A stretch of DNA of 64,000 bases from Escherichia coli (GCF_003018255.1 NZ_CP027440.1), one strand, 5' to 3'. Positions 2,755 to 40,920 are shown, counted from the first letter of the stretch. Translations and numbers: made by a program. The notes: generated by a model not told the origin, from the letters alone.

Positions 2755-2831
2755 GCGTCCGTAGCTCAGTTGGTTAGAGCACCACCTTGACATGGTGGGG
2801 GTCGGTGGTTCGAGTCCACTCGGACGCACCA
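2755..2831 (+). tRNA. valW: tRNA-Val (anticodon GAC), 77 nt, encoded CCA; tandem copy 4 nt after valV
   Basis: Near-identical cloverleaf to valV with acceptor-stem and T-arm substitutions (GCGTCCG...CGGACGCACCA). Confidence 0.95.
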
Positions 2832-2938
2832 GATTTTCTTAATCTGGTCTTCTCCTTTTTCCCTCTGTTTCTTCTCTATATCCAATACGTTAAAAGATTT
2901 ACACTGTCTTCGTATGCGTTATCAGAAGGAGAATCGCT

Positions 2939-3244
2939 ATGGCAACTTTGTTACAACTTCATTTTTCTTTCAATGGCCCATTTGGCGACGCAATGGCTGA
3001 GCAGCTTAAACCGCTTGCTGAGTCGATTAATCAGGAACCTGGTTTTCTGTGGAAGGTATGGACAGAAAGTGAAAAGAACCACGAAGCCGGTGGGATCTAC
3101 CTTTTTACTAATGAAAAAAGCGCCCTTGCCTATCTGGAAAAACATACTGCCCGACTGAAAAATCTCGGCGTTGAGGAAGTTGTCGCCAAAGTTTTCGATG
3201 TCAATGAGCCACTTAGTCAAATCAATCAGGCAAAACTCGCCTGA
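2939..3244 (+). CDS. ydhR: Putative monooxygenase-like small protein, 101 aa
   Basis: ORF with AAGGAGAA RBS 6 nt upstream; sequence and position match YdhR. Confidence 0.85.
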
Positions 3245-20909: not shown

Positions 20910-20985
20910 ATAAGAAAACCCTTAAGTCTGTGCGACACAGGCTTAAGGGTTTCTACCCCATCCGGCGCTTATCTCCGGCACTCAC
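20910..20985 (-). ncRNA. rydB: Candidate small RNA RydB (boundaries approximate)
   Basis: Minus-strand intrinsic terminator (stem aaacccttaag/cttaagggttt then TTTTCTTATTTC on minus) in the sufA-ydiH spacer where RydB is known to map. Confidence 0.4.
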
Positions 20986-21174
20986 AGTGGCTTAGCTCTT
21001 GAAGGGGCGATAAGAATAATCTCATAAAGCTAACCCGCCGTTTTAACACAAACTGCGATTAGTATTATTTTTGAACAATATCAGGCGGATAGATAAGCAG
21101 TATTAAGAAGGTCATCGAACCTGGACGGAGGTTAATCCAGGTCGATTTGGCAAAATTGCGGCATTAAGTCAGGA

Positions 21175-26612: not shown

Positions 26613-26717
26613 ACGGTTATAAATCAACATATTGATTTATAAGCATGGAAATCCCCTGAGTGAAACAACGAATTGCTGTGTGTAGTCTTTGCCCATCTCC
26701 CACGATGGGCTTTTTTT
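26613..26717 (+). ncRNA. rprA: RprA small regulatory RNA (RpoS translational activator), about 105 nt
   Basis: Sequence ACGGTTATAAATCAACATATTGATTTATAAGCATGGAAATCCCCTGAGTGAAACAACGAATTGCTGTGTGTAGTCTTTGCCCATCTCCCACGATGGGCTTTTTTTT recognised as RprA, with terminal hairpin and T-run. Confidence 0.9.
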
Positions 26718-26855
26718 TAACATTTTTCCGCTTTGCTATCTCGCCCCTCACGCTTTCCAATAATGTTGCACAAGATACTGTGACTCTCTTCAAGCCGTCA
26801 GCAGGCTGATAATGTTATTTATATTTTATTGTTTATTTCATGCAGCCATTACACG

Positions 26856-28526: not shown

Positions 28527-28752
28527 TGCAATATTCTTTTCAGGTCATGCAAGATCTTACGGATAAATAACTCTTTCTGCGCTAACTAAGGAAAATCGCG
28601 ATCAAAAACAAACTATGACATGCAATATTCCTGGAAACATAAACTTTATGCCATGTACCCAGGGAAAATTATCTTCAGTATAGTAATTATGTAAACCGTC
28701 GGAGAACAATACGTACGGTAACGAAATTATCTTTCAGCAAGGAGCTGTGAAA

Positions 28753-30018
28753 ATGTCTCAAAATAAGGCTTTCAGCACGCCATTTATCCTGGCTGTTCTT
28801 TGTATTTACTTCAGCTATTTCCTGCACGGCATTAGTGTTATTACGCTTGCCCAAAACATGACATCTTTGGCAGAAAAGTTTTCCACTGACAACGCGGGCA
28901 TTGCCTATTTAATTTCCGGTATCGGATTGGGGCGATTGATCAGTATTTTATTCTTCGGAGTGATCTCCGATAAGTTTGGTCGTCGGGCGGTGATATTAAT
29001 GGCAGTAATAATGTATCTGCTATTCTTCTTTGGTATTCCTGCTTGCCCGAATTTAACTCTCGCCTACTGTCTGGCAGTGTGCGTAGGTATCGCTAACTCA
29101 GCGCTGGATACGGGTGGCTACCCCGCGCTTATGGAATGCTTTCCGAAAGCCTCTGGTTCGGCGGTCATACTGGTTAAAGCGATGGTGTCATTCGGGCAAA
29201 TGTTCTACCCAATGCTGGTGAGCTATATGTTGCTCAATAACATCTGGTACGGCTATGGGCTGATTATTCCGGGTATTCTGTTTGTACTGATCACGCTGAT
29301 GCTGTTGAAAAGCAAATTCCCCAGCCAGTTGGTGGACGCCAGCGTAGCTAATGAATTACCGCAAATGAACAGCAAACCGTTAGTCTGGCTGGAAGGTGTT
29401 TCATCAGTACTGTTCGGTGTAGCCGCATTCTCGACCTTTTATGTGATTGTGGTGTGGATGCCCAAATATGCGATGGCTTTTGCTGGTATGTCAGAAGCTG
29501 AGGCATTAAAAACCATCTCTTATTACAGTATGGGTTCGCTGGTCTGTGTCTTTATTTTTGCCGCCCTGCTGAAAAAAATGGTCCGGCCCATCTGGGCTAA
29601 TGTATTTAACTCTGCACTGGCAACAATAACAGCTGCCATTATCTACCTGTACCCTTCTCCATTGGTGTGTAATGCCGGAGCCTTTGTTATCGGTTTCTCA
29701 GCAGCTGGCGGCATTTTACAGCTCGGCGTTTCGGTCATGTCAGAGTTTTTCCCAAAAAGCAAAGCCAAAGTCACCAGTATATATATGATGATGGGTGGAC
29801 TGGCTAACTTTGTTATTCCGCTGATTACCGGTTATCTGTCGAACATCGGCCTGCAATATATCATTGTTCTCGATTTTACTTTCGCGCTGCTGGCCCTGAT
29901 TACCGCAATTATTGTTTTTATCCGCTATTACCGCGTTTTCATTATTCCTGAAAATGATGTGCGGTTTGGCGAGCATAAATTTAGCACCCGGTTAAACACG
30001 ATTAAGCATAGAGGTTAA
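28753..30018 (+). CDS. ydiN: MFS transporter paralogous to YdiM, 421 aa
   Basis: Track ORF begins at a GTG at 28747; ATG at 28753 follows an AAGGAG RBS; SDKFGRR motif. Confidence 0.85.
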
Positions 30019-30029
30019 AGGAGTTAATT

Positions 30030-30896
30030 ATGGATGTTACCGCAAAATACGAATTGATTGGGTTGATGGCCTATCCCATCCGCCACAGTTTATCGCCCGA
30101 AATGCAGAATAAAGCCTTAGAAAAAGCGGGATTGCCATTTACCTATATGGCCTTTGAAGTGGATAACGATAGTTTTCCCGGAGCAATTGAAGGATTAAAA
30201 GCCCTCAAAATGCGCGGAACTGGTGTATCAATGCCGAACAAACAACTGGCGTGTGAATATGTTGATGAATTAACGCCAGCGGCCAAACTGGTGGGAGCCA
30301 TCAACACCATCGTTAATGATGATGGCTATCTGCGTGGCTATAACACCGACGGCACGGGTCATATTCGCGCCATTAAAGAGAGCGGTTTTGATATCAAAGG
30401 CAAAACGATGGTGCTATTAGGGGCCGGTGGTGCCTCAACGGCAATTGGCGCGCAGGGGGCAATTGAAGGTTTAAAAGAAATTAAACTCTTTAACCGTCGG
30501 GATGAGTTCTTCGATAAAGCTCTCGCCTTCGCGCAGCGGGTTAACGAAAACACCGATTGCGTCGTGACAGTCACCGATCTCGCCGATCAGCAAGCCTTTG
30601 CAGAAGCCCTGGCTTCCGCCGACATTTTAACCAATGGCACCAAAGTGGGTATGAAACCCCTTGAGAATGAATCATTGGTTAATGATATCAGTCTGTTACA
30701 TCCGGGACTTCTGGTCACTGAATGCGTGTATAACCCTCATATGACGAAGTTATTGCAGCAGGCGCAACAAGCGGGTTGCAAAACGATTGATGGATACGGC
30801 ATGTTGTTGTGGCAAGGGGCTGAACAGTTCACGTTATGGACTGGCAAAGATTTCCCTCTGGAATATGTTAAACAGGTCATGGGGTTCGGTGCCTGA
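30030..30896 (+). CDS. ydiB: Quinate/shikimate 5-dehydrogenase (NAD(P)), 288 aa
   Basis: AroE-paralog sequence with GAGGA nucleotide-binding motif. Confidence 0.9.
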
Positions 30897-30926: not shown

Positions 30927-31685
30927 ATGAAAACCGTAACTGTAAAAGATCTCGTCATTGGTACGGGCGCACCTAAAATCATCGTCTCGCTGATGGCGAA
31001 AGATATCGCCAGCGTGAAATCCGAAGCTCTCGCCTATCGTGAAGCGGACTTTGATATTCTGGAATGGCGTGTGGACCACTATGCCGATCTCTCCAATGTG
31101 GAGTCTGTCATAGCGGCAGCAAAAATTCTCCGTGAAACCATGCCAGAAAAACCGCTGCTGTTTACCTTCCGCAGTGCCAAAGAAGGCGGCGAGCAGGCGA
31201 TTTCCACCGAGGCTTATATTGCACTCAATCGTGCAGCCATCGACAGCGGCCTGGTTGATATAATCGATCTGGAGTTATTTACCGGCGATGATCAGGTTAA
31301 AGAAACCGTCGCCTACGCCCACGCGCATGATGTGAAAGTTGTCATGTCCAACCATGACTTCCATAAAACGCCGGAAGCCGAAGAAATCATTGCCCGTCTG
31401 CGCAAAATGCAGTCCTTCGATGCCGATATTCCTAAGATTGCGCTGATGCCGCAAAGTACCAGCGATGTGCTGACGTTGCTTGCTGCGACCCTGGAGATGC
31501 AGGAGCAGTATGCCGATCGTCCAATCATCACGATGTCGATGGCAAAAACTGGCGTAATTTCTCGTCTGGCTGGTGAAGTATTTGGCTCGGCGGCAACTTT
31601 TGGTGCGGTAAAAAAAGCCTCTGCGCCAGGGCAAATCTCGGTAAATGATTTGCGTACGGTATTAACTATTTTACATCAGGCATAA
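30927..31685 (+). CDS. aroD: 3-dehydroquinate dehydratase type I, 252 aa
   Basis: Sequence recognised as AroD; hairpin cggcggg...cccgccg follows the stop. Confidence 0.95.
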
Positions 31686-31830
31686 GCAATAATATTTCGG
31701 CGGGAATACTCTCCCCCGCCGAACTAAAAAAAGTATTTTTAACCGTATTTAATAAAAATATTTCGTGAGTCTCTGTGCGCTAATTCTCCATCTGGCGTAG
31801 GGAAAATCACACCTGAATCAGGAATTAACA

Positions 31831-33426
31831 ATGAAACCTGTAAAACCACCTCGCATTAATGGACGAGTGCCGGTCCTGTCGGCACAGGAAGCGGTGAATT
31901 ATATTCCCGACGAAGCAACACTTTGTGTGTTAGGCGCTGGCGGCGGTATTCTGGAAGCCACCACGTTAATTACTGCTCTTGCTGATAAATATAAACAGAC
32001 TCAAACACCACGTAATTTATCGATTATTAGTCCAACAGGGCTTGGCGATCGCGCCGACCGTGGTATTAGTCCGCTGGCGCAAGAAGGCCTGGTGAAATGG
32101 GCATTATGCGGTCACTGGGGACAATCGCCGCGTATTTCTGATCTCGCAGAACAAAATAAAATTATTGCTTATAACTATCCACAAGGTGTACTTACACAAA
32201 CCTTACGCGCCGCCGCAGCCCACCAGCCTGGTATTATTAGTGATATTGGCATCGGAACATTTGTCGATCCACGCCAGCAAGGCGGCAAACTGAATGAAGT
32301 CACTAAAGAAGACCTGATTAAACTGGTCGAGTTTGATAACAAAGAATATCTCTATTACAAAGCGATAGCGCCAGATATCGCCTTCATTCGCGCTACCACC
32401 TGCGACAGCGAAGGCTACGCCACTTTTGAAGATGAGGTGATGTATCTCGACGCATTGGTTATTGCTCAGGCGGTGCACAATAACGGCGGTATTGTGATGA
32501 TGCAGGTGCAGAAAATGGTTAAGAAAGCCACGCTGCATCCTAAATCTGTCCGTATTCCGGGTTATCTGGTGGATATTGTGGTGGTCGATCCGGATCAAAC
32601 CCAACTGTATGGCGGAGCGCCGGTTAACCGCTTTATTTCTGGTGACTTCACCCTTGATGACAGCACCAAACTTAGCCTGCCCCTAAACCAACGTAAATTA
32701 GTTGCACGGCGTGCATTATTCGAAATGCGCAAAGGCGCAGTGGGGAATGTCGGCGTCGGTATTGCTGACGGCATTGGCCTGGTCGCCCGGGAAGAAGGTT
32801 GTGCTGATGACTTTATTCTGACGGTAGAAACAGGTCCGATTGGCGGTATTACTTCACAGGGGATCGCCTTTGGCGCGAACGTGAATACCCGCGCCATTCT
32901 GGATATGACGTCCCAGTTTGATTTTTATCACGGTGGTGGTCTGGATGTTTGTTATTTGAGTTTTGCTGAAGTCGACCAGCACGGTAACGTCGGCGTGCAT
33001 AAATTCAATGGTAAAATCATGGGCACCGGTGGATTTATTGATATCAGTGCCACTTCGAAGAAAATCGTTTTCTGCGGCACATTAACTGCGGGCAGTTTAA
33101 AAACAGAAATTACCGACGGCAAATTAAATATCGTCCAGGAAGGACGGGTGAAGAAATTTATTCGGGAACTACCAGAAATTACTTTTAGCGGAAAAATCGC
33201 GCTCGAGCGAGGGCTGGATGTTCGTTATATCACTGAGCGCGCCGTATTCACGCTGAAAGAAGACGGCCTGCATTTAATCGAAATCGCTCCTGGCGTCGAT
33301 TTACAAAAAGATATTCTCGACAAAATGGATTTCACCCCAGTGATTTCGCCAGAACTCAAACTGATGGACGAAAGATTATTTATCGATGCGGCGATGGGTT
33401 TTGTCCTGCCTGAAGCGGCTCATTAA
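31831..33426 (+). CDS. ydiF: Acyl-CoA:acetate CoA-transferase with fused alpha/beta subunits, 531 aa
   Basis: Family I CoA-transferase sequence; synteny. Confidence 0.9.
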   Translation: MKPVKPPRINGRVPVLSAQEAVNYIPDEATLCVLGAGGGILEATTLITALADKYKQTQTPRNLSIISPTGLGDRADRGISPLAQEGLVKWALCGHWGQSPRISDLAEQNKIIAYNYPQGVLTQTLRAAAAHQPGIISDIGIGTFVDPRQQGGKLNEVTKEDLIKLVEFDNKEYLYYKAIAPDIAFIRATTCDSEGYATFEDEVMYLDALVIAQAVHNNGGIVMMQVQKMVKKATLHPKSVRIPGYLVDIVVVDPDQTQLYGGAPVNRFISGDFTLDDSTKLSLPLNQRKLVARRALFEMRKGAVGNVGVGIADGIGLVAREEGCADDFILTVETGPIGGITSQGIAFGANVNTRAILDMTSQFDFYHGGGLDVCYLSFAEVDQHGNVGVHKFNGKIMGTGGFIDISATSKKIVFCGTLTAGSLKTEITDGKLNIVQEGRVKKFIRELPEITFSGKIALERGLDVRYITERAVFTLKEDGLHLIEIAPGVDLQKDILDKMDFTPVISPELKLMDERLFIDAAMGFVLPEAAH

Positions 33427-33439
33427 CAGGAGTATAATG

Positions 33440-34591
33440 ATGGATTTTTCTTTAACTGAAGAACAAGAACTGCTGCTGGCCAGTATTCGCGAACTGATTA
33501 CGACTAACTTTCCGGAAGAGTATTTCCGCACCTGCGATCAAAACGGGACATACCCGCGTGAATTTATGCGGGCACTGGCGGATAACGGTATTTCCATGCT
33601 TGGCGTGCCGGAAGAATTTGGTGGTATCCCTGCGGATTACGTCACCCAAATGCTGGCGCTGATGGAAGTGTCAAAATGCGGTGCCCCGGCATTTTTGATC
33701 ACCAACGGTCAATGTATTCACAGTATGCGCCGTTTCGGTTCTGCAGAGCAGCTACGTAAAACGGCGGAAAGCACCCTGGAAACGGGTGATCCCGCCTATG
33801 CCCTGGCATTGACGGAACCAGGCGCAGGCTCAGATAACAACAGCGCCACCACCACTTACACGCGTAAAAACGGCAAGGTTTACATCAACGGCCAGAAAAC
33901 CTTTATTACCGGTGCGAAAGAGTACCCGTATATGCTGGTGCTGGCGCGCGATCCAGAACCGAAAGATCCGAAAAAGGCCTTCACCCTGTGGTGGGTCGAC
34001 TCCAGTAAGCCCGGCATTAAGATTAACCCGCTGCATAAAATCGGCTGGCATATGCTCAGCACCTGCAAAGTCTATCTCGACAACGTAGAGGTTGAAGAGA
34101 GCGACATGGTGGGCGAAGAAGGAATGGGTTTCCTCAATGTGATGTATAACTTTGAGATGGAGCGCCTGATCAACGCCGCGCGCAGCACCGGCTTTGCCGA
34201 GTGTGCCTTTGAAGATGCCGCCCGCTATGCCAACCAACGTATCGCTTTTGGTAAGCCCATTGGTCATAACCAGATGATCCAGGAAAAACTGGCGCTGATG
34301 GCGATTAAGATCGACAACATGCGCAACATGGTGTTGAAAGTGGCATGGCAAGCCGATCAGCATCAGTCACTGCGCACCAGCGCGGCGCTGGCAAAACTGT
34401 ACTGCGCACGTACCGCAATGGAAGTTATTGATGATGCGATTCAAATCATGGGCGGTCTGGGCTATACCGATGAGGCGCGCGTCTCTCGCTTCTGGCGTGA
34501 TGTCCGTTGTGAACGTATCGGCGGCGGTACAGACGAAATTATGATTTACGTAGCGGGTCGGCAGATCCTGAAAGATTATCAGAACAAATAA
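33440..34591 (+). CDS. ydiO: Acyl-CoA dehydrogenase family protein, 383 aa
   Basis: Track ORF begins at 33386; AGGAG RBS precedes the ATGATG pair at 33437/33440, giving MDFSLTEEQELL. Confidence 0.85.
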   Translation: MDFSLTEEQELLLASIRELITTNFPEEYFRTCDQNGTYPREFMRALADNGISMLGVPEEFGGIPADYVTQMLALMEVSKCGAPAFLITNGQCIHSMRRFGSAEQLRKTAESTLETGDPAYALALTEPGAGSDNNSATTTYTRKNGKVYINGQKTFITGAKEYPYMLVLARDPEPKDPKKAFTLWWVDSSKPGIKINPLHKIGWHMLSTCKVYLDNVEVEESDMVGEEGMGFLNVMYNFEMERLINAARSTGFAECAFEDAARYANQRIAFGKPIGHNQMIQEKLALMAIKIDNMRNMVLKVAWQADQHQSLRTSAALAKLYCARTAMEVIDDAIQIMGGLGYTDEARVSRFWRDVRCERIGGGTDEIMIYVAGRQILKDYQNK

Positions 34592-34596
34592 TCTGC

Positions 34597-34632
34597 AGGC
34601 GGCGCAGCTTCTTAACAAACTGCGCCGCCAGA
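34597..34632. terminator. Hairpin between convergent ydiO and ydiP
   Basis: Stem ggcggcgcag/ctgcgccgcc with a 12-nt loop; flanking T/A tracts are weak. Confidence 0.4.
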
Positions 34633-34633
34633 T

Positions 34634-35545
34634 TTATCCGGCAAGACTTATCGGTTGAGGAAATTCAGATAAGATTTCTTGTTCCGCAAAACAGTTTTTA
34701 AATTGCCTGCGGTAATCGCTGGGCGAACAGCCGACATGGCGCAAAAACAGTTTGGCAAAGTGATCGACATTTTCATAACCCACACGCCAGGAGATCTCTG
34801 CCTGTGATAATTCAGTATTAGTGAGTGACCATTTCGCTTCCGTCATACGCCGTTGAATAACATAGTTAATAGGGGAAATGCGATACTCTTTGGTAAATTC
34901 ATGGCAAATATAACTGACGCTGGCACGAAACTTTTTCGATAACTGCTCTAAAGTGATTTTTTCGCGATAATTATTATTCAGATAGAAAAGAATATCTTTT
35001 ATCAGAACATCTTTTTTAATATACCCCTGCTCCGAACGATAAGCATTTTTAAAGTTTTCATAGTAAAGAATTGCTAACGTATAGGCAAATGCGTCCCATA
35101 ACGAAGATGTTTGGCTATTTTTACTTTGCGGCAAAATCACACTTAGCTCATTAAATAAGGTTTTAATGACTTCTTTTCCCTGCCCTGCGGCAATTACCGG
35201 GCAAGAATGCGGTTGCAGTAGCTGATTTTCCTCAGCCCCCTGAAACTGAAAGCCGTACAGCGCACAGGTACACGTCGTTGCTGGATCGTTAACGTCAGAG
35301 GCCACCGCATGCAACCTGCCACGTTCTATCACCACAATGTCATCGGCATGCGCGACATATAACGAAGAATCGATGGTAAACCTTGCTACCCCTTTCTTGA
35401 CGTAAATCAACTCGGTTTCATTGTCATGAACGTGATGTCCGGACTCCCATTTTGGATCATCGCTAAATGCAAAACGTGAAAGCCGTGGCGTTTTACCGGC
35501 GACAAACAGCGTTTCGCTGGCGTTATCAAAACAGCGTTGATACAT
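34634..35545 (-). CDS. ydiP: AraC/XylS-family transcriptional regulator, 303 aa
   Basis: C-terminal AraC-type helix-turn-helix region; N-terminal cupin-like domain. Confidence 0.85.
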   Translation of the reverse strand: MYQRCFDNASETLFVAGKTPRLSRFAFSDDPKWESGHHVHDNETELIYVKKGVARFTIDSSLYVAHADDIVVIERGRLHAVASDVNDPATTCTCALYGFQFQGAEENQLLQPHSCPVIAAGQGKEVIKTLFNELSVILPQSKNSQTSSLWDAFAYTLAILYYENFKNAYRSEQGYIKKDVLIKDILFYLNNNYREKITLEQLSKKFRASVSYICHEFTKEYRISPINYVIQRRMTEAKWSLTNTELSQAEISWRVGYENVDHFAKLFLRHVGCSPSDYRRQFKNCFAEQEILSEFPQPISLAG

Positions 35546-35860
35546 GACAACCTCCCTATTCCATGAGCAAGCAAAAACAATATATGCCGGATAAAATACG
35601 GCGTGTATTGCGGTTATACAACCGTGTTTAGCGAGAGCTAAACAAGATTATTTACACTGAATGCAAGATTGTACGGTCATGGAATAACAACATTGCCGCA
35701 AATTGCACTTTTGTTTTAGCGATCGCATTTTTTTTGCAAGATTGTTGGCAAGGAAAACAGCTTGCTCCGTCGAAAACCCCGCACCGCTACCGCACACTAT
35801 TTTCAGGCCATTTTTACCTTCCATCGGAGATGGTTCCGTATGCGACTCACAGGAGAAATC

Positions 35861-36625
35861 ATGAAAATAATAACCTGCTTTAAGCTGGTGCCTGAAGAAC
35901 AGGACATTGTTGTCACTCCAGAATATACCCTGAATTTCGACAATGCCGACGCCAAAATCAGCCAGTTCGATCTCAATGCCATTGAAGCTGCAAGCCAGCT
36001 TGCAACAGATGACGATGAGATAGCCGCGCTGACCGTCGGCGGCTCTTTGTTGCAGAACTCGAAAGTGCGCAAAGACGTGCTATCCCGCGGGCCGCACAGC
36101 CTGTATATGGTGCAGGATGCACAACTTGAGCATGCACTGCCTCTCGATACCGCAAAGGCGCTGGCGACAGCAGTTGAAAAGATCGGCTTCGATTTACTGA
36201 TCTTTGGTGAAGGTTCCGGCGACCTTTATGCCCAGCAGGTTGGCTTGCTGGTCGGAGAAATTCTGCAACTTCCGGTGATTAATGCAGTGAGTGCCATTCA
36301 GCGTCAGGGCAATACACTGGTGATTGAACGCACGCTTGAAGATGATGTTGAAGTTATTGAACTCTCTGTTCCAGCCGTGCTCTGCGTCACCTCCGATATT
36401 AACGTACCACGTATTCCTTCGATGAAAGCCATCCTCGGCGCGGGTAAAAAACCGGTAAATCAGTGGCAGGCAAGTGATATTGGCTGGAGCCAGAGCGCAC
36501 CACTTGCTGAACTGACCGGCATTCGCGTACCGCCGCAAACAGAACGTAAGCACATCATTCTCGATAACGATTCGCCGGAGGCCATTGCCGAGCTGGCAGA
36601 ACATCTGAAGAAAGCCCTGAACTGA
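35861..36625 (+). CDS. ydiQ: Electron transfer flavoprotein beta-subunit-like protein, 254 aa
   Basis: Track ORF begins at 35762; the ATG at 35861 follows an AGGAG RBS and gives MKIITCFKLV. Confidence 0.85.
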   Translation: MKIITCFKLVPEEQDIVVTPEYTLNFDNADAKISQFDLNAIEAASQLATDDDEIAALTVGGSLLQNSKVRKDVLSRGPHSLYMVQDAQLEHALPLDTAKALATAVEKIGFDLLIFGEGSGDLYAQQVGLLVGEILQLPVINAVSAIQRQGNTLVIERTLEDDVEVIELSVPAVLCVTSDINVPRIPSMKAILGAGKKPVNQWQASDIGWSQSAPLAELTGIRVPPQTERKHIILDNDSPEAIAELAEHLKKALN

Positions 36626-36644
36626 AGCCTACGGAGAAGAAACG

Positions 36645-37583
36645 ATGAGTCAATTAAACAGCGTCTGGGTCTTTAGCGATAATCCTGAACGTTATGCTGA
36701 ACTGTTTGGCGGCGCTCAGCAATGGGGCCAACAGGTGTATGCCATTGTACAAAATACCGACCAGGCGCAGACAGTTATGCCTTATGGGCCAAAATGCATT
36801 TATGTTCTTGCGCAAAACGACGCGCTGCAACGTACTGAAAATTACGCCGAAAGCATTGCTGCCCTGCTGAAAGATAAACACCCTTCTATGTTGCTGCTGG
36901 CCGCGACGAAACGCGGTAAAGCTCTGGCTGCACGGTTAAGTGTGCAACTGAATGCGGCGCTGGTGAACGATGCCACTGCGGTGGATATTGTCGATGGTCA
37001 CATTTGCGCCGAACACCGGATGTATGGCGGGTTAGCGTTCGCACAGGAAAAGATCAATAGCCCGCTGGCGATCATTACCCTTGCGCCCGGTGTTCAGGAA
37101 CCGTGCACCAGTGATACCTCTAATCAGTGTCCGACAGAAACGGTACCTTATGTTGCCCCGCGTCATGAAATTCTCTGTCGCGAACGCCGTGCGAAAGCGG
37201 CAAGCAGCGTGGACCTGAGCAAAGCAAAACGTGTGGTTGGCGTCGGTCGTGGTCTGGCAGCGCAGGATGACCTGAAAATGGTCCACGAACTGGCGGCGGT
37301 GCTGAATGCTGAAGTCGGCTGTTCACGTCCAATTGCCGAAGGCGAGAACTGGATGGAGCGTGAACGTTATATCGGTGTCTCCGGCGTGTTGCTGAAATCC
37401 GATCTCTACCTGACGCTGGGGATCTCCGGGCAGATCCAGCATATGGTTGGCGGCAACGGCGCAAAAGTGATTGTCGCCATTAATAAAGATAAAAATGCGC
37501 CAATCTTCAACTATGCCGACTACGGTCTGGTGGGCGATATCTACAAAGTCGTCCCTGCCCTGATTAGCCAGTTGAGTCGCTGA
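36645..37583 (+). CDS. ydiR: Electron transfer flavoprotein alpha-subunit-like protein, 312 aa
   Basis: ETF-alpha-like sequence; synteny. Confidence 0.9.
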   Translation: MSQLNSVWVFSDNPERYAELFGGAQQWGQQVYAIVQNTDQAQTVMPYGPKCIYVLAQNDALQRTENYAESIAALLKDKHPSMLLLAATKRGKALAARLSVQLNAALVNDATAVDIVDGHICAEHRMYGGLAFAQEKINSPLAIITLAPGVQEPCTSDTSNQCPTETVPYVAPRHEILCRERRAKAASSVDLSKAKRVVGVGRGLAAQDDLKMVHELAAVLNAEVGCSRPIAEGENWMERERYIGVSGVLLKSDLYLTLGISGQIQHMVGGNGAKVIVAINKDKNAPIFNYADYGLVGDIYKVVPALISQLSR

Positions 37584-37637
37584 TTCCCTTTCAACCACAT
37601 CTCCCGCTGTAAACGCAGCGGGAAGGGAGCATAACGC

Positions 37638-38927
37638 ATGTCGGATGACAAATTTGATGCCATTGTGGTCGGTGCGGGCGTTGCCGGTAGCGTTGCCGCA
37701 CTGGTCATGGCGCGAGCCGGGCTGGATGTCCTGGTGATAGAACGCGGCGACAGTGCCGGATGTAAAAACATGACCGGCGGGCGTCTTTATGCCCACACAC
37801 TTGACGCAATTATTCCAGGCTTTGCAGCATCAGCGCCGGTAGAACGCAAGGTCACACGCGAGAAAATCTCCTTCTTAACCGAAGAAAGCGCCGTTACCCT
37901 CGATTTTCACCGCGAGCAACCAGATGTTCCGCAACACGCGTCTTATACCGTATTGCGTAATCGTCTGGACCCGTGGTTGATGGAACAAGCCGAGCAGGCG
38001 GGCGCGCAGTTTATCCCGGGCGTACGCGTCGATGCACTGGTTCGTGAAGGAAACAAGGTCACTGGCGTCCAGGCCGGGGATGATATTCTCGAAGCGAATG
38101 TGGTGATTCTGGCTGATGGCGTTAACTCGATGCTTGGCCGCTCGCTGGGAATGGTTTCCGCTTCCGATCCGCATCATTACGCTGTTGGTGTTAAAGAGGT
38201 TATAGGCCTGACACCAGAACAGATCAACGATCGCTTTAATGTTACGGGCGAGGAAGGTGCCGCCTGGCTGTTTGCCGGTTCCCCTTCTGACGGCCTGATG
38301 GGCGGCGGATTCCTCTATACCAACAAAGATTCCGTATCGTTGGGGCTGGTTTGTGGATTGGGTGATATCGCCCATGCGCAAAAAAGTGTGCCGCAAATGC
38401 TGGAAGATTTTAAACAACACCCCGCCATTCGCCCGCTGATTAGCGGCGGCAAACTGCTTGAATACTCCGCGCATATGGTGCCGGAGGGCGGTCTGGCAAT
38501 GGTGCCGCAGCTGGTTAACGATGGCGTGATGATCGTTGGTGACGCCGCAGGCTTCTGCCTGAATTTGGGTTTTACGGTCCGCGGCATGGATTTAGCCATT
38601 GCATCGGCTCAGGCTGCCGCCACAACAGTGATCGCCGCCAAAGAACGCGCGGATTTCTCCGCCAGCAGTCTTGCGCAATACAAACGTGAGCTGGAACAAA
38701 GCTGCGTCATGCGTGATATGCAGCATTTTCGCAAGATCCCGGCGCTGATGGAAAACCCGCGCCTGTTTAGCCAATACCCACGAATGGTCGCCGACATCAT
38801 GAACGAGATGTTCACCATCGACGGCAAACCTAACCAACCGGTACGCAAAATGATCATGGGACACGCGAAGAAAATTGGACTGATCAACTTGCTGAAAGAT
38901 GGCATTAAGGGAGCAACCGCGCTATGA
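37638..38927 (+). CDS. ydiS: FAD-dependent oxidoreductase (FixC / ETF-quinone oxidoreductase-like), 429 aa
   Basis: N-terminal FAD motif DAIVVGAGVAGS. Confidence 0.9.
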   Translation: MSDDKFDAIVVGAGVAGSVAALVMARAGLDVLVIERGDSAGCKNMTGGRLYAHTLDAIIPGFAASAPVERKVTREKISFLTEESAVTLDFHREQPDVPQHASYTVLRNRLDPWLMEQAEQAGAQFIPGVRVDALVREGNKVTGVQAGDDILEANVVILADGVNSMLGRSLGMVSASDPHHYAVGVKEVIGLTPEQINDRFNVTGEEGAAWLFAGSPSDGLMGGGFLYTNKDSVSLGLVCGLGDIAHAQKSVPQMLEDFKQHPAIRPLISGGKLLEYSAHMVPEGGLAMVPQLVNDGVMIVGDAAGFCLNLGFTVRGMDLAIASAQAAATTVIAAKERADFSASSLAQYKRELEQSCVMRDMQHFRKIPALMENPRLFSQYPRMVADIMNEMFTIDGKPNQPVRKMIMGHAKKIGLINLLKDGIKGATAL

Positions 38928-39217
38928 GCCAGAACGCTACGGTTAACGTCGACATCAAATTAGGCGTAAATAAATTCCATGTTGATGAGGGCCACCCGCA
39001 TATCATTCTGGCGGCAAATCCCGATATCAATGAATTCCGTAAATTAATGAAAGCCTGCCCTGCCGGACTTTATAAGCAGGATGACGCAGGAAACATTCAT
39101 TTCGATTCCGCCGGTTGTCTGGAGTGCGGCACCTGTCGGGTGCTGTGCGGCAACACTATTCTCGAACAGTGGCAATATCCCGCAGGCACCTTCGGTATTG
39201 AATTTCGCTACGGCTAA
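38924..39217 (+). CDS. ydiT: FixX-type ferredoxin-like protein, 97 aa
   Basis: CxxCxxC cysteine motif; start overlaps ydiS stop (ATGA). Confidence 0.85.
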   Translation: MSQNATVNVDIKLGVNKFHVDEGHPHIILAANPDINEFRKLMKACPAGLYKQDDAGNIHFDSAGCLECGTCRVLCGNTILEQWQYPAGTFGIEFRYG

Positions 39218-39219
39218 TC

Positions 39220-40920
39220 ATGCATCCCACAGGCCCGCATCTCGGGCCTGATGTTCTGTTTCGAGAGTCCAAAATGAAAGTGACATTAACGTTCAACGAA
39301 CAACGTCGTGCGGCGTATCGTCAGCAAGGGTTATGGGGCGATGCTTCACTGGCCGATTACTGGCAGCAGACCGCTCGTGCGATGCCAGACAAAATTGCCG
39401 TGGTCGACAATCATGGTGCAACGTACACTTATAGCGCGCTCGATCACGCCGCGAGCTGTCTGGCAAACTGGATGTTAGCGAAGGGTATTGAATCAGGCGA
39501 TCGCATCGCATTTCAACTGCCAGGCTGGTGTGAATTTACCGTTATCTATCTTGCCTGCCTGAAAACCGGTGCGGTTTCCGTGCCGCTGTTGCCTTCCTGG
39601 CGAGAAGCAGAACTGGTGTGGGTGCTCAATAAGTGTCAGGCAAAAATGTTCTTTGCACCGACGTTGTTTAAACAAACGCGTCCGGTAGATTTAATCCTGC
39701 CGCTGCAAAATCAGCTTCCACAACTACAACAAATTGTCGGCGTGGACAAACTGGCTCCCGCCACCTCTGCTCTCTCATTAAGTCAGATTATCGCCGACAA
39801 TACTCCTCTGACCACGGCGATAACGGTCCACGGCGATGAATTAGCCGCGGTGCTGTTTACCTCCGGAACCGAGGGTCTGCCAAAGGGCGTGATGCTAACG
39901 CATAACAATATTCTCGCCAGTGAGCGGGCTTATTGCGCGCGGCTAAATCTGACCTGGCAGGATGTCTTTATGATGCCTGCGCCACTTGGTCACGCAACGG
40001 GCTTTCTGCATGGCGTAACAGCACCTTTTTTGATTGGTGCTCGCAGCGTGTTGTTAGATATTTTCACTCCTGCTGCGTGTCTCGCGCTGCTTGAGCAGCA
40101 GCGTTGCACCTGTATGCTCGGCGCAACGCCGTTTGTCTATGATCTTTTGAATTTACTGGAGAAACAGCCCGCAGACCTTTCAGCGCTGCGTTTCTTTCTT
40201 TGCGGCGGTACCACAATCCCCAAAAAAGTGGCGCGTGAATGCCAGCAGCGCGGCATTAAATTATTAAGTGTTTATGGTTCCACAGAAAGTTCGCCGCATG
40301 CGGTGGTGAATCTCGATGATCCTTTGTCGCGCTTTATACACACCGATGGTTACGCTGCCGCAGGTGTAGAGATTAAAGTGGTCGATGACGCACGCAAGAC
40401 TTTACCGCCAGGTTGCGAAGGTGAAGAAGCCTCGCGTGGCCCCAATGTGTTTATGGGGTATTTTGATGAACCTGAATTAACCGCCCGTGCGCTGGATGAA
40501 GAAGGCTGGTATTACAGCGGCGATCTCTGCCGCATGGATGAGGCTGGCTATATAAAAATAACCGGGCGCAAGAAAGATATTATTGTCCGCGGCGGCGAAA
40601 ATATTAGCAGCCGTGAAGTAGAAGATATTTTATTGCAGCATCCTAAAATTCACGATGCTTGTGTGGTTGCAATGCCCGATGAACGCTTAGGTGAACGTTC
40701 ATGCGCTTATGTCGTGCTGAAAGCACCGCATCATTCATTATCGCTGGAAGATGTAGTGGCATTTTTTAGCCGTAAACGGGTCGCGAAATATAAATATCCT
40801 GAACATATCGTGGTAATCGAAAAACTACCGCGCACAGCCTCAGGTAAAATACAAAAGTTTTTGTTAAGGAAAGATATTATGCGGCGATTAACTCAGGATG
40901 TCTGTGAAGAGATTGAATAA
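39220..40920 (+). CDS. fadK: Short/medium-chain acyl-CoA synthetase, 566 aa (alternative start at 39274 would give 548 aa)
   Basis: AMP-binding motif FTSGTEGLPKG; ATG at 39220 lies 2 nt after the ydiT stop. Confidence 0.85.
   Translation: MHPTGPHLGPDVLFRESKMKVTLTFNEQRRAAYRQQGLWGDASLADYWQQTARAMPDKIAVVDNHGATYTYSALDHAASCLANWMLAKGIESGDRIAFQLPGWCEFTVIYLACLKTGAVSVPLLPSWREAELVWVLNKCQAKMFFAPTLFKQTRPVDLILPLQNQLPQLQQIVGVDKLAPATSALSLSQIIADNTPLTTAITVHGDELAAVLFTSGTEGLPKGVMLTHNNILASERAYCARLNLTWQDVFMMPAPLGHATGFLHGVTAPFLIGARSVLLDIFTPAACLALLEQQRCTCMLGATPFVYDLLNLLEKQPADLSALRFFLCGGTTIPKKVARECQQRGIKLLSVYGSTESSPHAVVNLDDPLSRFIHTDGYAAAGVEIKVVDDARKTLPPGCEGEEASRGPNVFMGYFDEPELTARALDEEGWYYSGDLCRMDEAGYIKITGRKKDIIVRGGENISSREVEDILLQHPKIHDACVVAMPDERLGERSCAYVVLKAPHHSLSLEDVVAFFSRKRVAKYKYPEHIVVIEKLPRTASGKIQKFLLRKDIMRRLTQDVCEEIE

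Follow-up and report, generated by a model that had tools for sequence, protein, structure and literature searches.

A predicted quinone-linked acyl-CoA redox cluster in the ydiN-fadK region of Escherichia coli and its possible role in the reduction of shikimate and quinate

Introduction

Among the closest described relatives of the gene cluster studied here, ydiF-ydiO-ydiP-ydiQRST-fadK of Escherichia coli, are the carnitine system of the same organism (caiTABCDE and fixABCX) and the Car system of Acetobacterium woodii. We examined the cluster in a 64,000-nucleotide stretch of E. coli DNA (GCF_003018255.1 NZ_CP027440.1; hereafter the window), in which it occupies positions 31831-40920, counted from the first nucleotide. 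In the Car system the ligase CarB primes the pathway, the transferase CarA cycles coenzyme A (CoA), and CarCDE, an acyl-CoA dehydrogenase (ACAD)-type reductase with its own electron-transfer flavoprotein (ETF), uses a plant enoate as acceptor. Hydroaromatic acids can also be reduced; lactobacilli were reported in the 1970s to convert both quinate and shikimate to dihydroshikimate. Sutterella wadsworthensis and Eggerthella lenta grow by reducing the shikimate enoate to 'hydroshikimate', and the E. lenta enzyme is a flavin reductase, none being named for Sutterella (Little et al., bioRxiv 10.1101/2022.12.26.521950).

The ydi locus has been annotated and partly studied, and its likeness to cai/fix has been noted before. 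FadK has been characterized as an anaerobically expressed short/medium-chain acyl-CoA synthetase and YdiF as an acetoacetyl-CoA-type transferase. We know of no explanation, since its characterization, for the role of YdiB, an NAD(P)-dependent quinate/shikimate dehydrogenase encoded just upstream. YdiO and YdiQRST have been used in models of reversed beta-oxidation, and ydiO has been cited as a poorly characterized 'y-gene' (PMC6412132). Context and expression have linked ydiM, ydiN, ydiB and aroD to one another (PMC10588857, PMC8788726) and ydiN to shikimate genes (PMC10588857); no paper in the literature searched links ydiF, ydiO or ydiQRST with quinate or shikimate. A preliminary description of the cluster, made from the sequence, pictured a nine-kb unit resembling an anaerobic or electron-bifurcating acyl-CoA redox system. 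As written it restated the annotation; what is new here is the boundaries of the unit, a negative answer on bifurcation and a testable hypothesis of function.

Results

Paralogy of the ydi cluster with the carnitine system

The encoded proteins were assigned to families by the curated cut-offs of Pfam and NCBIfam, with one near-miss, the FixX equivalog. YdiF matched CoA_trans (PF01144) at 168 bits and, over its full length, PDB entry 2AHU at 1189 bits (2AHV and 2AHW were matched as well), and its catalytic Glu333, located in a TVExG motif, was invariant among 15 homologues. YdiO contains three Acyl-CoA_dh domains and scored 783.8 bits with NF008997. The two ETF subunits were recognized as such, YdiQ by its ETF domain and NF008998 (497.9 bits) and YdiR by its ETF_alpha domain (97.5 bits) and NF008884 (684.9 bits). 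YdiS combines a DAO domain with the ETFQO_UQ-bd domain PF21162 (38.5 bits against a cut-off of 27.7) and scored 973 bits with NF007450; its best solved relatives are the FixC subunit 7KOE_C (242.6 bits) and the pig ETF:quinone oxidoreductase (ETF-QO) 2GMH. YdiT is FixX-like at 145.8 bits, slightly below the FixX equivalog cut-off of 166, and matches 7KOE_D at 57 bits. FadK reached 1086 bits with NF004758, the medium-chain fatty-acid--CoA ligase family (cut-off 736), and its next-best family, cyclohexanecarboxylate-CoA ligase, stayed under its cut-off at 420 bits. Matches of YdiO and FadK to the models of cyclohexanecarboxyl-CoA dehydrogenase and ligase were rejected as lying far below the cut-offs, YdiO scoring no better there than with generic families. 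YdiP carries HTH_18 (74 bits), Cupin_2 (42.7 bits) and AraC_binding (41.5 bits) domains. The identities, order, orientation and coordinates of the genes in the preliminary description were thus all correct by RefSeq, Pfam and NCBIfam, as were the limits of the ydiP-ydiQ spacer (35546-35860), and the family assignments bear out its picture of an ETF-linked acyl-CoA redox system with a CoA-transferase, a CoA-ligase and a divergent AraC-type regulator.

The cai/fix and ygc loci of E. coli K-12 were compared with the ydi proteins by BLASTP. YdiO is 47.6% identical to CaiA over 382 residues; the identities of the electron-transfer proteins are 55% (YdiQ-FixA), 43% (YdiR-FixB), 61% (YdiS-FixC) and 64% (YdiT-FixX), and that of FadK with CaiC is 29% over 534 residues, with the same Pfam architecture. 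The cut-offs of the FixA and FixC subfamilies were passed as well. From the ygc locus, YgcQ, YgcN and YgcO are more distant from the ydi set (30-42% identity), and YdiF resembles no CaiB-type (family III) transferase in this comparison. By these similarities, the ydi cluster is a paralogue of the carnitine system CaiA/FixABCX/CaiC. YdiO scored 450 bits on the CaiA model, and because this is under the equivalog cut-off of 540, the protein is a CaiA paralogue with another substrate and not an orthologue.

Two features of the YdiO active site were observed in the alignments. YdiO (C-terminal ERIGGGTDE), CaiA and all members of the clade have Gly at the site of the catalytic Glu of most ACADs (IGGGT versus IYEGT), and a Glu in the sequence FEMERL is conserved in the YdiO/CaiA clade. 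This Glu occupies the position that serves as catalytic site in isovaleryl-CoA and long-chain dehydrogenases, enzymes that tolerate bulky or branched substrates.

A predicted quinone-linked, non-bifurcating electron-transfer chain

Bifurcating and canonical ETFs have been distinguished by a small set of residues. The small subunit of bifurcating ETFs carries DGDTAQ, with a Thr that is 100% conserved in 216 such proteins, at the site where canonical ETFs (449 proteins) carry the AMP-site motif DDDSNQ; the second flavin adenine dinucleotide (FAD) requires two Thr residues (T94 and T97 of R. palustris ETF), and a large-subunit Arg (R165 in R. palustris) is kept in 447 of the 449 canonical ETFs and in the bifurcating ones (PMC8958531). 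We read the corresponding motifs of YdiQ and YdiR from alignments with three solved bifurcating ETFs. YdiQ has DLYAQQ where CarD, LctB and C. difficile EtfB have DGDTAQ, and the canonical DDDSNQ is likewise absent; DLYAQQ is invariant in the eight other clade members aligned, YgcR excepted. Where the bifurcating proteins have GADTWATS, YdiQ has ALPLDTA, so that the first Thr is replaced by Pro and the second is kept. At the site of the large-subunit Arg, seven of eight clade members (YdiR, E. coli FixB and five relatives) have His and the Sutterella protein has Phe, with the reservation that the alignment of this loop in YdiR may be off by one, an Arg standing at the next position, where FixB has Met. 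YdiR retains the motifs of the electron-transfer FAD, CSRP and GISGQIQH (GISGQIQHxxG). Four cysteines (CP...CxxCxxC) are conserved in YdiT, FixX and their relatives, against nine in T. maritima EtfX, and YdiT is thus predicted to bind one [4Fe-4S] cluster rather than two. These non-bifurcating features are common to E. coli FixA/FixB and to the Desulfovibrio, Sutterella and metagenome homologues. The YdiQR/FixAB clade would accordingly be neither canonical nor bifurcating at its second nucleotide site; enterobacterial proteins were reportedly placed in an ETF group of their own by Garcia Costas et al. in 2017.

Because the DGDTAQ, Thr-pair and Arg signatures are missing and YdiT appears to have a single cluster, electron bifurcation by YdiQRST is unlikely, and enterobacterial FixAB/YdiQR proteins should not be presumed to bifurcate. 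YdiS and YdiT look instead like a split ETF-QO served by a dedicated non-bifurcating ETF, YdiQ/YdiR, and the predicted chain, in either direction, is quinone - YdiS FAD - YdiT [4Fe-4S] - YdiR FAD - YdiO FAD - acyl/enoyl-CoA. By its sequence, the locus encodes all the parts of an autonomous module for electron transfer from the membrane quinone pool to the alpha,beta bond of an acyl-CoA, or the reverse. Of the two characters first ascribed to the system, an anaerobic one remains plausible in light of a reported FNR binding peak (see below) and the paralogy with Cai/Fix, and the bifurcating one is not supported. The electron acceptor, which had been left open, is narrowed to the quinone pool by the ubiquinone-binding domain of YdiS and its match to FixC; no effector of YdiP was found in the literature searched, in agreement with the preliminary description.

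The conserved unit extends to ydiN, ydiB and aroD

A scan of one genome per species with YdiO gave 45 loci, onto which the proteins of the window were mapped. The block ydiN-ydiB-aroD-ydiF-ydiO / ydiP / ydiQRST-fadK was found in 11 genera of Enterobacterales, including Escherichia, Citrobacter, Kosakonia, Intestinirhabdus, Yersinia, Serratia, Dickeya, Brenneria, Prodigiosinella and Symbiopectobacterium. Synteny within this order could by itself be vertical. Klebsiella and Enterobacter reportedly have no ydiN. In the Betaproteobacteria Sutterella seckii and S. wadsworthensis, and in related gut metagenomes, fadK-ydiTSRQ is divergent from ydiN-ydiB-aroD-ydiF-ydiO, and ydiP is missing. YdiO identity to the window protein is 91-97% across the Enterobacterales genera and 80-84% in Sutterella; YdiR in the same loci is less conserved (67-76% and 43-54%, respectively), so that the identities in the Sutterella island run from 84% down to 43-54%. 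Since its flanks differ between species and its identities are low, the Sutterella island has probably been retained for a long time.

Two further arrangements came from uncultured organisms. One contig (L056; 43% G+C) has a one-strand operon of a major facilitator superfamily (MFS) transporter gene, ydiF, ydiO, ETF beta, ETF alpha, aroD, FixC, FixX and ligase, in which the gene for a type I dehydroquinase lies inside the electron-transfer operon, between ETF alpha and FixC. The other (L059) reads shikimate dehydrogenase-dehydroquinase-ACAD-MFS-ACAD-ETF-FixCX-ligase-...-ydiF-ydiO. Four independent gene orders (Enterobacterales, Sutterella, L056 and L059) therefore retain the same gene set. The dehydroquinases linked to ydiF/ydiO outside E. 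coli keep the catalytic His143 and Lys170, and a FadK-like ligase lies 3' of FixX in the Sutterella-type contigs, in L056 and L059, and in Desulfovibrio. The rearranged loci beyond Enterobacterales argue for a functional tie among these genes, and we infer that the functional unit is probably a 12-kb block from ydiN (28753) to fadK. The nine-kb unit first described holds the genes assigned to it, but its limits were too narrow, as the conserved module includes ydiN-ydiB-aroD.

Sister clades of YdiO (63-68% identity) belong to modules laid out on the same plan, in which the CoA-transferase is of family III and aro genes are missing. Such modules, L055 among them, come from Desulfovibrio desulfuricans (L052 and L053), E. 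albertii (L054) and metagenomes, and contain CoA_transf_3, MFS, ACAD and ETF beta/alpha genes, some together with FixCX, a metallo-beta-lactamase-fold protein and an AMP ligase. The design thus appears to be general, with a substrate that differs among clades. The E. albertii locus is an additional, paralogous system with its own AraC-type regulator.

Two further loci stand apart. A 21.8-kb contig labelled Martelella alba BGMRC 2031, an alphaproteobacterium, has a complete enterobacterial-type cluster (YdiO 91%, YdiF 87% identical), which is either assembly contamination or a horizontal transfer. The context of a 74%-identical YdiO homologue (P0027), a lone ACAD beside an aldo-keto reductase, was set aside as uninformative.

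YdiF homologues adjoin dehydroquinases in low-G+C genomes

A metagenome scan with an alignment of YdiF yielded 80 loci, onto which reference proteins were mapped. Where YdiF was at least 79% identical and at least 3.8 kb upstream was available, ydiN-ydiB-aroD was present in 10 of 11 loci, the exception being the contig L065. A dehydroquinase or shikimate dehydrogenase was found in all five metagenome loci with YdiF identities of 59-62% and a flank of at least 6 kb, and in none of the 31 loci (391 kb in total) with identities of 44-49% and the same flank. In Sedimentibacter and another genome, operons that encode a YdiF homologue (63-65%) also encode a MaoC dehydratase, an ApbA-type reductase and a dehydroquinase of type II, which is not related to AroD. 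Overall, the low-G+C (Firmicute-type) homologues with identities of 59-65% adjoin dehydroquinases of type I, type II or both, shikimate dehydrogenase, transporters and a regulator that resembles YdiP. The Cloacibacillus homologue (L064), near which only NMO, MaoC, TRAP and SDR genes and no dehydroquinase or shikimate dehydrogenase were found, was counted as negative.

A human gut locus (L087) illustrates the arrangement: shikimate dehydrogenase-MFS-dehydroquinase I-TRAP transporter-AraC (opposite strand)-YdiF-MaoC-ApbA-hypothetical-dehydroquinase II-MFS. Its AraC-type protein, divergent from the YdiF homologue, shares 37% identity with YdiP across 273 residues, a stretch that takes in the cupin domain. 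In a bioreactor locus (L082), a YdiF homologue is accompanied by an ACAD, a FadK-like ligase, an SDR, an enoyl-CoA hydratase and a shikimate dehydrogenase. Judging from these neighbourhoods, the YdiF subfamily and a YdiP-like regulator appear to be tied to hydroaromatic acid metabolism in two phyla. We also observed, between the ApbA-type reductase and dehydroquinase II of the low-G+C clusters, a conserved protein of 126-133 residues (L087, 11101-11481; L063, 12117-12512; L062, 11729-12130) that had no Pfam or NCBIfam match.

Candidate regulatory sites

The ydiP-ydiQ spacer is exactly 315 bp long and contains three direct CAAGATT repeats, the third of which lies 3' of a T8 tract and 5' of the conserved block GTTGGnAAnnAAAACAnnTT. 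Three of the four exact matches to RCAAGATTRT in the window fall in this spacer. The repeats are conserved in the 11 Enterobacterales genera, with the distance to the third varying between genera. Tandem half-sites 21 bp apart are typical of AraC-family operators, and the repeats are candidates for a YdiP operator together with an activator-dependent promoter of ydiQRST-fadK. No consensus sigma-70 promoter and no FNR site was found in the 315-bp spacer, and promoter and terminator scans gave counts at or under the shuffle expectation. A sigma-54 promoter in the conserved block TGGCAAGGAAAACAGCTTGCT was considered and rejected, because the GG/GC spacing fits only with a GG that Citrobacter does not share. 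The Sutterella spacer has GCAAGAT motifs as well; these lack extended similarity, may be due to chance, and were not retained.

A near-copy of the spacer repeat lies upstream of ydiN. The pattern ATGCAAGATNNTACGG, derived after inspection of both sites, occurs exactly twice in the window, at 28547-28562 and 35661-35676. The 16-nt near-copy upstream of ydiN, ATGCAAGATnnTACGG, is present in Escherichia only, and E. whittamii has the pattern too. The upstream site is suggestive of an operator shared with the ydiP-ydiQ spacer.

An FNR peak was detected at ydiP/ydiQ by chromatin immunoprecipitation on microarrays, and the site quoted for it is TTGACGTAAATCAA (PMC1802558). This is the only FNR-like site at that location and it lies inside ydiP, so the reported FNR site falls outside the intergenic spacer. 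A genetic-interaction study assigned YdiP to the control of cold-shock genes (PMC9283627), and the protein had few sites in another study, by chromatin immunoprecipitation with exonuclease digestion. Independently of these points, the published FlhDC sequence for ydiO/ydiP/ydiQ, obtained by genomic SELEX (systematic evolution of ligands by exponential enrichment), corresponds to the 5' end of ydiP at about 35500-35545; ydiV, the anti-FlhDC gene, is present in the same window.

Coordinates, conservation in E. coli and other features of the window

Of 5426 complete E. coli genomes, 5425 match the segment 31000-41500, with identities of 95-99.9%; the match extends over at least 80% of its length in 5347 genomes and over less than 80% in the other 78. 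The cluster is real core-genome sequence, and a chance pattern is excluded. All eight genes (ydiF, ydiO, ydiP, ydiQ, ydiR, ydiS, ydiT and fadK) are intact. Their coordinates (Table 1) are those of the RefSeq annotation of the best-matching genome, carried over to the window; ydiM, ydiN, ydiB and aroD lie upstream and ppsA, on the minus strand, downstream. For three genes a longer open reading frame (ORF) is available. The longest ORF of ydiO begins at 33386, with the NCBIfam model and RefSeq agreeing on the annotated start, that of ydiQ begins at a TTG at 35762, and that of fadK could begin at 39220, the family model starting at residue 19 of this ORF.

Spacing within the cluster is partly conserved. 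The gap between ydiF and ydiO is 13 bp here and 12-18 bp across genera, and the 4-bp overlap of ydiS and ydiT is kept in the 11 genera; the aroD-ydiF gap, 145 bp here, is 76-386 bp in other genera. Two GC-rich hairpins were noted. The one 3' of aroD is a possible partial terminator or processing site that uncouples ydiF-ydiO from aroD, and the one in the ydiT-fadK spacer may uncouple fadK from ydiT in the same manner.

Table 1. Genes and sequence features of the ydiN-fadK region (window positions)
Feature	Position	Strand	Description
Near-copy of spacer repeat, ATGCAAGATCTTACGG	28547-28562	+	Upstream of ydiN
ydiN	28753-30018	+	MFS transporter; RefSeq
ydiB	30030-30896	+	Quinate/shikimate dehydrogenase; NCBIfam NF009390, 669.9 bits (cut-off 349)
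aroD	30927-31685	+	Type I 3-dehydroquinate dehydratase; TIGR01093, 290.8 bits
GC-rich hairpin	31696-31723		Directly 3' of aroD, without adjacent T-run
ydiF	31831-33426	+	Family I CoA-transferase, alpha and beta halves fused; RefSeq, PF01144
ydiO	33440-34591	+	CaiA-like acyl-CoA dehydrogenase / enoyl-CoA reductase; RefSeq, NF008997
ydiP	34634-35545	-	AraC-family regulator with N-terminal cupin ligand domain; RefSeq, Pfam
FNR-type site, TTGACGTAAATCAA	35397-35410	+	Inside ydiP coding sequence, ~460 bp upstream of ydiQ start
CAAGATT repeat 1	35642-35651	+	Direct repeat in ydiP-ydiQ spacer
CAAGATT repeat 2	35663-35672	+	Spaced 21 bp from repeat 1
CAAGATT repeat 3	35736-35745	+	Spaced 73 bp from repeat 2
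ydiQ	35861-36625	+	ETF small (beta, FixA-like) subunit, predicted non-bifurcating type; RefSeq, NF008998
ydiR	36645-37583	+	ETF large (alpha, FixB-like) subunit, electron-transfer FAD; RefSeq, NF008884
ydiS	37638-38927	+	FixC-like flavoprotein, predicted FAD and quinone half of split ETF-QO; NF007450
ydiT	38924-39217	+	FixX-like ferredoxin, predicted single [4Fe-4S]; overlaps ydiS by 4 bp
GC-rich hairpin	39230-39250	+	ydiT-fadK spacer, without proper T-run
fadK	39274-40920	+	AMP-forming acyl-CoA ligase; RefSeq name fadK, NF004758

Several further observations concern the genome and the rest of the window. E. coli E69 (CP089930.1) lacks the segment from inside ydiO to inside fadK (window 33612-40497), a deletion that recalls the loss of ydiQRSTD in S. 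Typhi. An intact gene of the ShET2/EspL2 family of type III effectors/toxins lies at about 59337-60368, between thrS and yniD, a position at which K-12 presumably has the arpB pseudogene. Rfam matches at the gathering score were HPnc0260 (2793-2955, minus strand), rydB (20948-21008, minus), RprA (26613-26720, plus), STnc540 (51397-51555, minus) and the Phe leader (55396-55520, minus). All are expected for this region of E. coli except HPnc0260, an antisense RNA match beside two tRNA-Val genes, which shares sequence with the second of them (2755-2828) and also covers the ydhR start (2941).

Discussion

Taken together, the paralogy with the carnitine system, the predicted quinone-linked chain and the company kept by ydiF and ydiO outside Enterobacterales lead us to propose, tentatively and at slightly under even confidence, that the cluster encodes a CoA-dependent, quinol-driven pathway of shikimate/quinate reduction on the pattern of carnitine respiration. 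The growth of S. wadsworthensis, a carrier of the island, by shikimate reduction, the repeat that recurs upstream of ydiN, and the small effect of YdiO on butyrate production (see below) also count in its favour. More broadly, it seems to us moderately probable that hydroaromatic or alicyclic acids are the native substrates. That the whole 12-kb block is one pathway, by which dietary quinate and shikimate, as CoA thioesters, serve as anaerobic electron acceptors for E. coli, Salmonella, many plant- and gut-associated Enterobacterales and Sutterella, is a possibility that we advance with more hesitation.

In the proposed pathway, YdiN would perhaps import quinate or shikimate, and YdiB and AroD would convert quinate through dehydroquinate and dehydroshikimate to shikimate. 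This route would be redox-neutral, which would explain the dual specificity of YdiB, and AroD would make the C1=C2 enoate, the role that CaiD plays for carnitine. FadK would make the first CoA ester, as CaiC and CarB do, after which YdiF would cycle CoA from the product onto shikimate or dehydroshikimate. YdiO would then reduce shikimoyl-CoA (or dehydroshikimoyl-CoA) with electrons passing from menaquinol through YdiS and YdiT to YdiQR, YdiF would release dihydroshikimate, and this would leave the cell, so that shikimate would serve as an anaerobic electron sink. Quinate itself cannot be a substrate of an ACAD because its C1 carries no hydrogen, and this would account for the dehydroquinase gene as the most constant partner of the module. 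Activity on short-chain fatty acids, acetoacetate and lactate would, on this view, be a side or secondary property of these enzymes.

A number of observations weigh against this proposal. Synteny in Enterobacterales is largely vertical, and the Sutterella island may go back to one transfer of the contiguous genes. Between aroD and ydiF there are 145 bp and a hairpin, and the position of aroD could reflect biosynthesis; aroD encodes the only biosynthetic dehydroquinase of E. coli. The contig L065 (OJSN01002986.1, 4054-6798) carries a ydiF-ydiO segment that has 98.4% identity to window 31717-34461 and is flanked by integrase, miaA-like and GNAT genes at one end and by a nicotinate phosphoribosyltransferase gene at the other. 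These are unrelated housekeeping-type flanks, with no aro genes and no plasmid match, and the contig could be a chimera of the assembly or the result of a recent ydiF-ydiO transfer. The low-G+C clusters pair YdiF with hydratases and reductases and not with ACAD/ETF, and they back the substrate class rather than the reductive step. Sutterella has many unrelated flavin reductases of the E. lenta type. YdiF is reported, in papers on lysine lactylation, to act on acetoacetyl-CoA/acetate, short acyl-CoAs and lactate. Campbell et al. (2003) and Morgan-Kiss and Cronan (2004) reportedly tied fadK to anaerobic fatty-acid activation, Bronner et al. (2018) reportedly dealt with Salmonella ydiD, and the Salmonella ydiQRSTD operon has been tied to butyrate utilization. 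Finally, one paper describes the loss of ydiQRSTD in S. Typhi as preventing the utilization of butyrate (PMC6249985).

These last reports are also what speaks for the main rival, the view taken in the literature, in which the cluster serves anaerobic beta-oxidation of short- and medium-chain fatty acids and its adjacency to ydiN-ydiB-aroD is meaningless. FadK would activate acids from butyrate to decanoate, YdiO would oxidize the acyl-CoA to enoyl-CoA, and FadJ and FadI would complete the cycle; by way of YdiQR and YdiST, electrons would reach (demethyl)menaquinone or ubiquinone and end at nitrate or tetrathionate reductases, and YdiF would swap CoA with acetate or acetoacetate. This view draws further support from the pass of FadK on the curated medium-chain fatty-acid--CoA ligase equivalog, from the classical oxidative route of acyl-CoA dehydrogenases through ETF and ETF-QO, and from the FNR peak at ydiP/ydiQ. 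However, it leaves unexplained why genes for dehydroquinase, shikimate dehydrogenase and an MFS transporter travel with ydiF/ydiO/ETF/FixCX in rearranged orders, and why the nearest non-proteobacterial relatives of YdiF stand beside both of the unrelated dehydroquinase types. The closest characterized relative of YdiO, CaiA, is a reductase, and the cluster has no hydratase, dehydrogenase or thiolase. Acyl-CoA oxidation has a textbook potential of about -10 mV and menaquinone one of -74 mV, so that oxidation of an acyl-CoA by menaquinone would be uphill. A 2026 review, moreover, states that deletion or overexpression of YdiO changed butyrate production very little (PMC13126070). On this evidence we consider beta-oxidation rather unlikely to be the native role of the cluster; the fatty-acid and hydroaromatic readings are nonetheless compatible, and not exclusive, if the enzymes are promiscuous.

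The same substrate class could also be handled in the opposite direction. Saturated alicyclic acids produced by gut anaerobes (dihydroshikimate, hydroxycyclohexanecarboxylates) would be oxidized to shikimate, which would enter aromatic biosynthesis or further degradation, with electrons going to the quinone pool. The comparative evidence for hydroaromatic substrates applies equally here, a chain from ETF to ETF-QO usually runs oxidatively, and the gene set of the bioreactor locus described above (YdiF homologue, ACAD, hydratase, SDR and shikimate dehydrogenase) looks degradative. On the other side, the closest characterized paralogue, CaiA/FixABCX, is reductive; S. wadsworthensis, which carries the island, reduces shikimate rather than making it; and no role is apparent for YdiB and AroD in a pathway that would end at shikimate. 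We regard the oxidative direction as improbable.

It is more improbable still that no common system exists and that ydiF-ydiO, ydiP, ydiQRST-fadK and ydiN-ydiB-aroD are mere neighbours in enterobacterial chromosomes. Separate transcription units are indeed likely, given the 145 bp and hairpin upstream of ydiF, the convergent ydiO and ydiP and the 315-bp divergent spacer; YdiP has been assigned to cold-shock regulation (PMC9283627), and L065 has ydiF-ydiO by themselves. Nevertheless, the gene content survives rearrangement in Sutterella, L056 and L059, the sister modules (Desulfovibrio, L055 and E. albertii) join an ACAD to ETF and usually to FixCX, a CoA-transferase, a ligase and a transporter, and a YdiP-like regulator stands beside YdiF homologues in the low-G+C loci. 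Least credible of all is flavin-based bifurcation, in which NADH would be oxidized at a second FAD of YdiQ and its two electrons divided, one passing to quinone or enoyl-CoA and the second reducing a low-potential ferredoxin or flavodoxin. In its favour, the genes have the four-part FixABCX architecture, and YdiQ, YdiS and YdiT find their best solved relatives in bifurcating complexes (6FAH_B, 7KOE_C and 7KOE_D), but YdiQ has DLYAQQ for DGDTAQ and LPLDT for DTWAT, His replaces the large-subunit Arg in seven of eight clade members, and the YdiT/FixX clade has room for only one Fe-S cluster.

If the proposed reduction of shikimate and quinate is correct, YdiB, YdiN, YdiF, YdiO, YdiQRST and YdiP would share one physiological role, and the enzyme system of shikimate-respiring Sutterella would be identified. 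These would be the first genes for the long-known conversion by gut bacteria of quinate and shikimate to hydroxycyclohexanecarboxylates and onward to cyclohexanecarboxylate, benzoate and hippurate. The proposal would bear on the gut ecology of Enterobacteriaceae and Sutterella under plant-rich diets, on the reading of the virulence phenotype of Salmonella ydiQRSTD, and on strains for shikimate production, from which ydiB and ydiN have been deleted empirically.

Compared with systems already described, the proposed pathway has the same net reaction as the E. lenta shikimate reductase, from the shikimate enoate to hydroshikimate with a respiratory acceptor, but the E. lenta enzyme is a fumarate-reductase-like flavin reductase that acts on the free acid and involves no CoA, ETF or FixCX. 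With the fatty-acid genes fadK-fadI-fadJ and with Salmonella ydiQRSTD the overlap is literal, in that fadK is the identical gene and the ydiQRST genes are orthologues; Salmonella YdiO and YdiF are 95% and 92% identical to the window proteins. However, fadI and fadJ are elsewhere in the genome, and the link with ydiN-ydiB-aroD is not explained by that system. Canonical ETF and ETF-QO (1EFV and 2GMH) share the predicted cofactor chain of ETF FAD, [4Fe-4S], FAD and quinone site, and differ in that the canonical ETF-QO is one polypeptide that in the ydi cluster appears to be split into YdiS and YdiT. The bifurcating FixABCX/EtfABCX complexes of Azotobacter vinelandii and T. maritima (7KOE) have the same four-subunit architecture, but the bifurcating motifs, the Arg and the two-cluster EtfX of 7KOE are missing from YdiQRST. 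The A. woodii Car complex (6FAH) is closer in logic. CarD is the best solved match of YdiQ (84 bits), CarC matches YdiO, and in both systems a CoA loop would feed an ACAD-type enoyl-CoA reductase with its own ETF; Car is soluble and bifurcating (DGDTAQ) and has no FixCX, whereas the Ydi system would be wired to quinone through YdiS and YdiT.

The nearest likeness remains that to cai/fix. Both systems have a CaiA-type enzyme, a dedicated FixABCX set, an AMP ligase, a CoA-recycling transferase and a nearby transporter, both are laid out as two divergent or adjacent operons, and both share the non-bifurcating features of FixA, FixB and FixX. The transferase has kept its role but not its family, YdiF belonging to family I (PF01144) and CaiB to family III. 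An AraC-type regulator stands in place of CaiF, and enzymes of quinate/shikimate metabolism are the neighbours. The ydi cluster has no crotonase-type CaiD, no CaiE and no BCCT antiporter CaiT; by analogy with carnitine respiration, we propose that AroD and YdiN would be the functional stand-ins for CaiD and CaiT.

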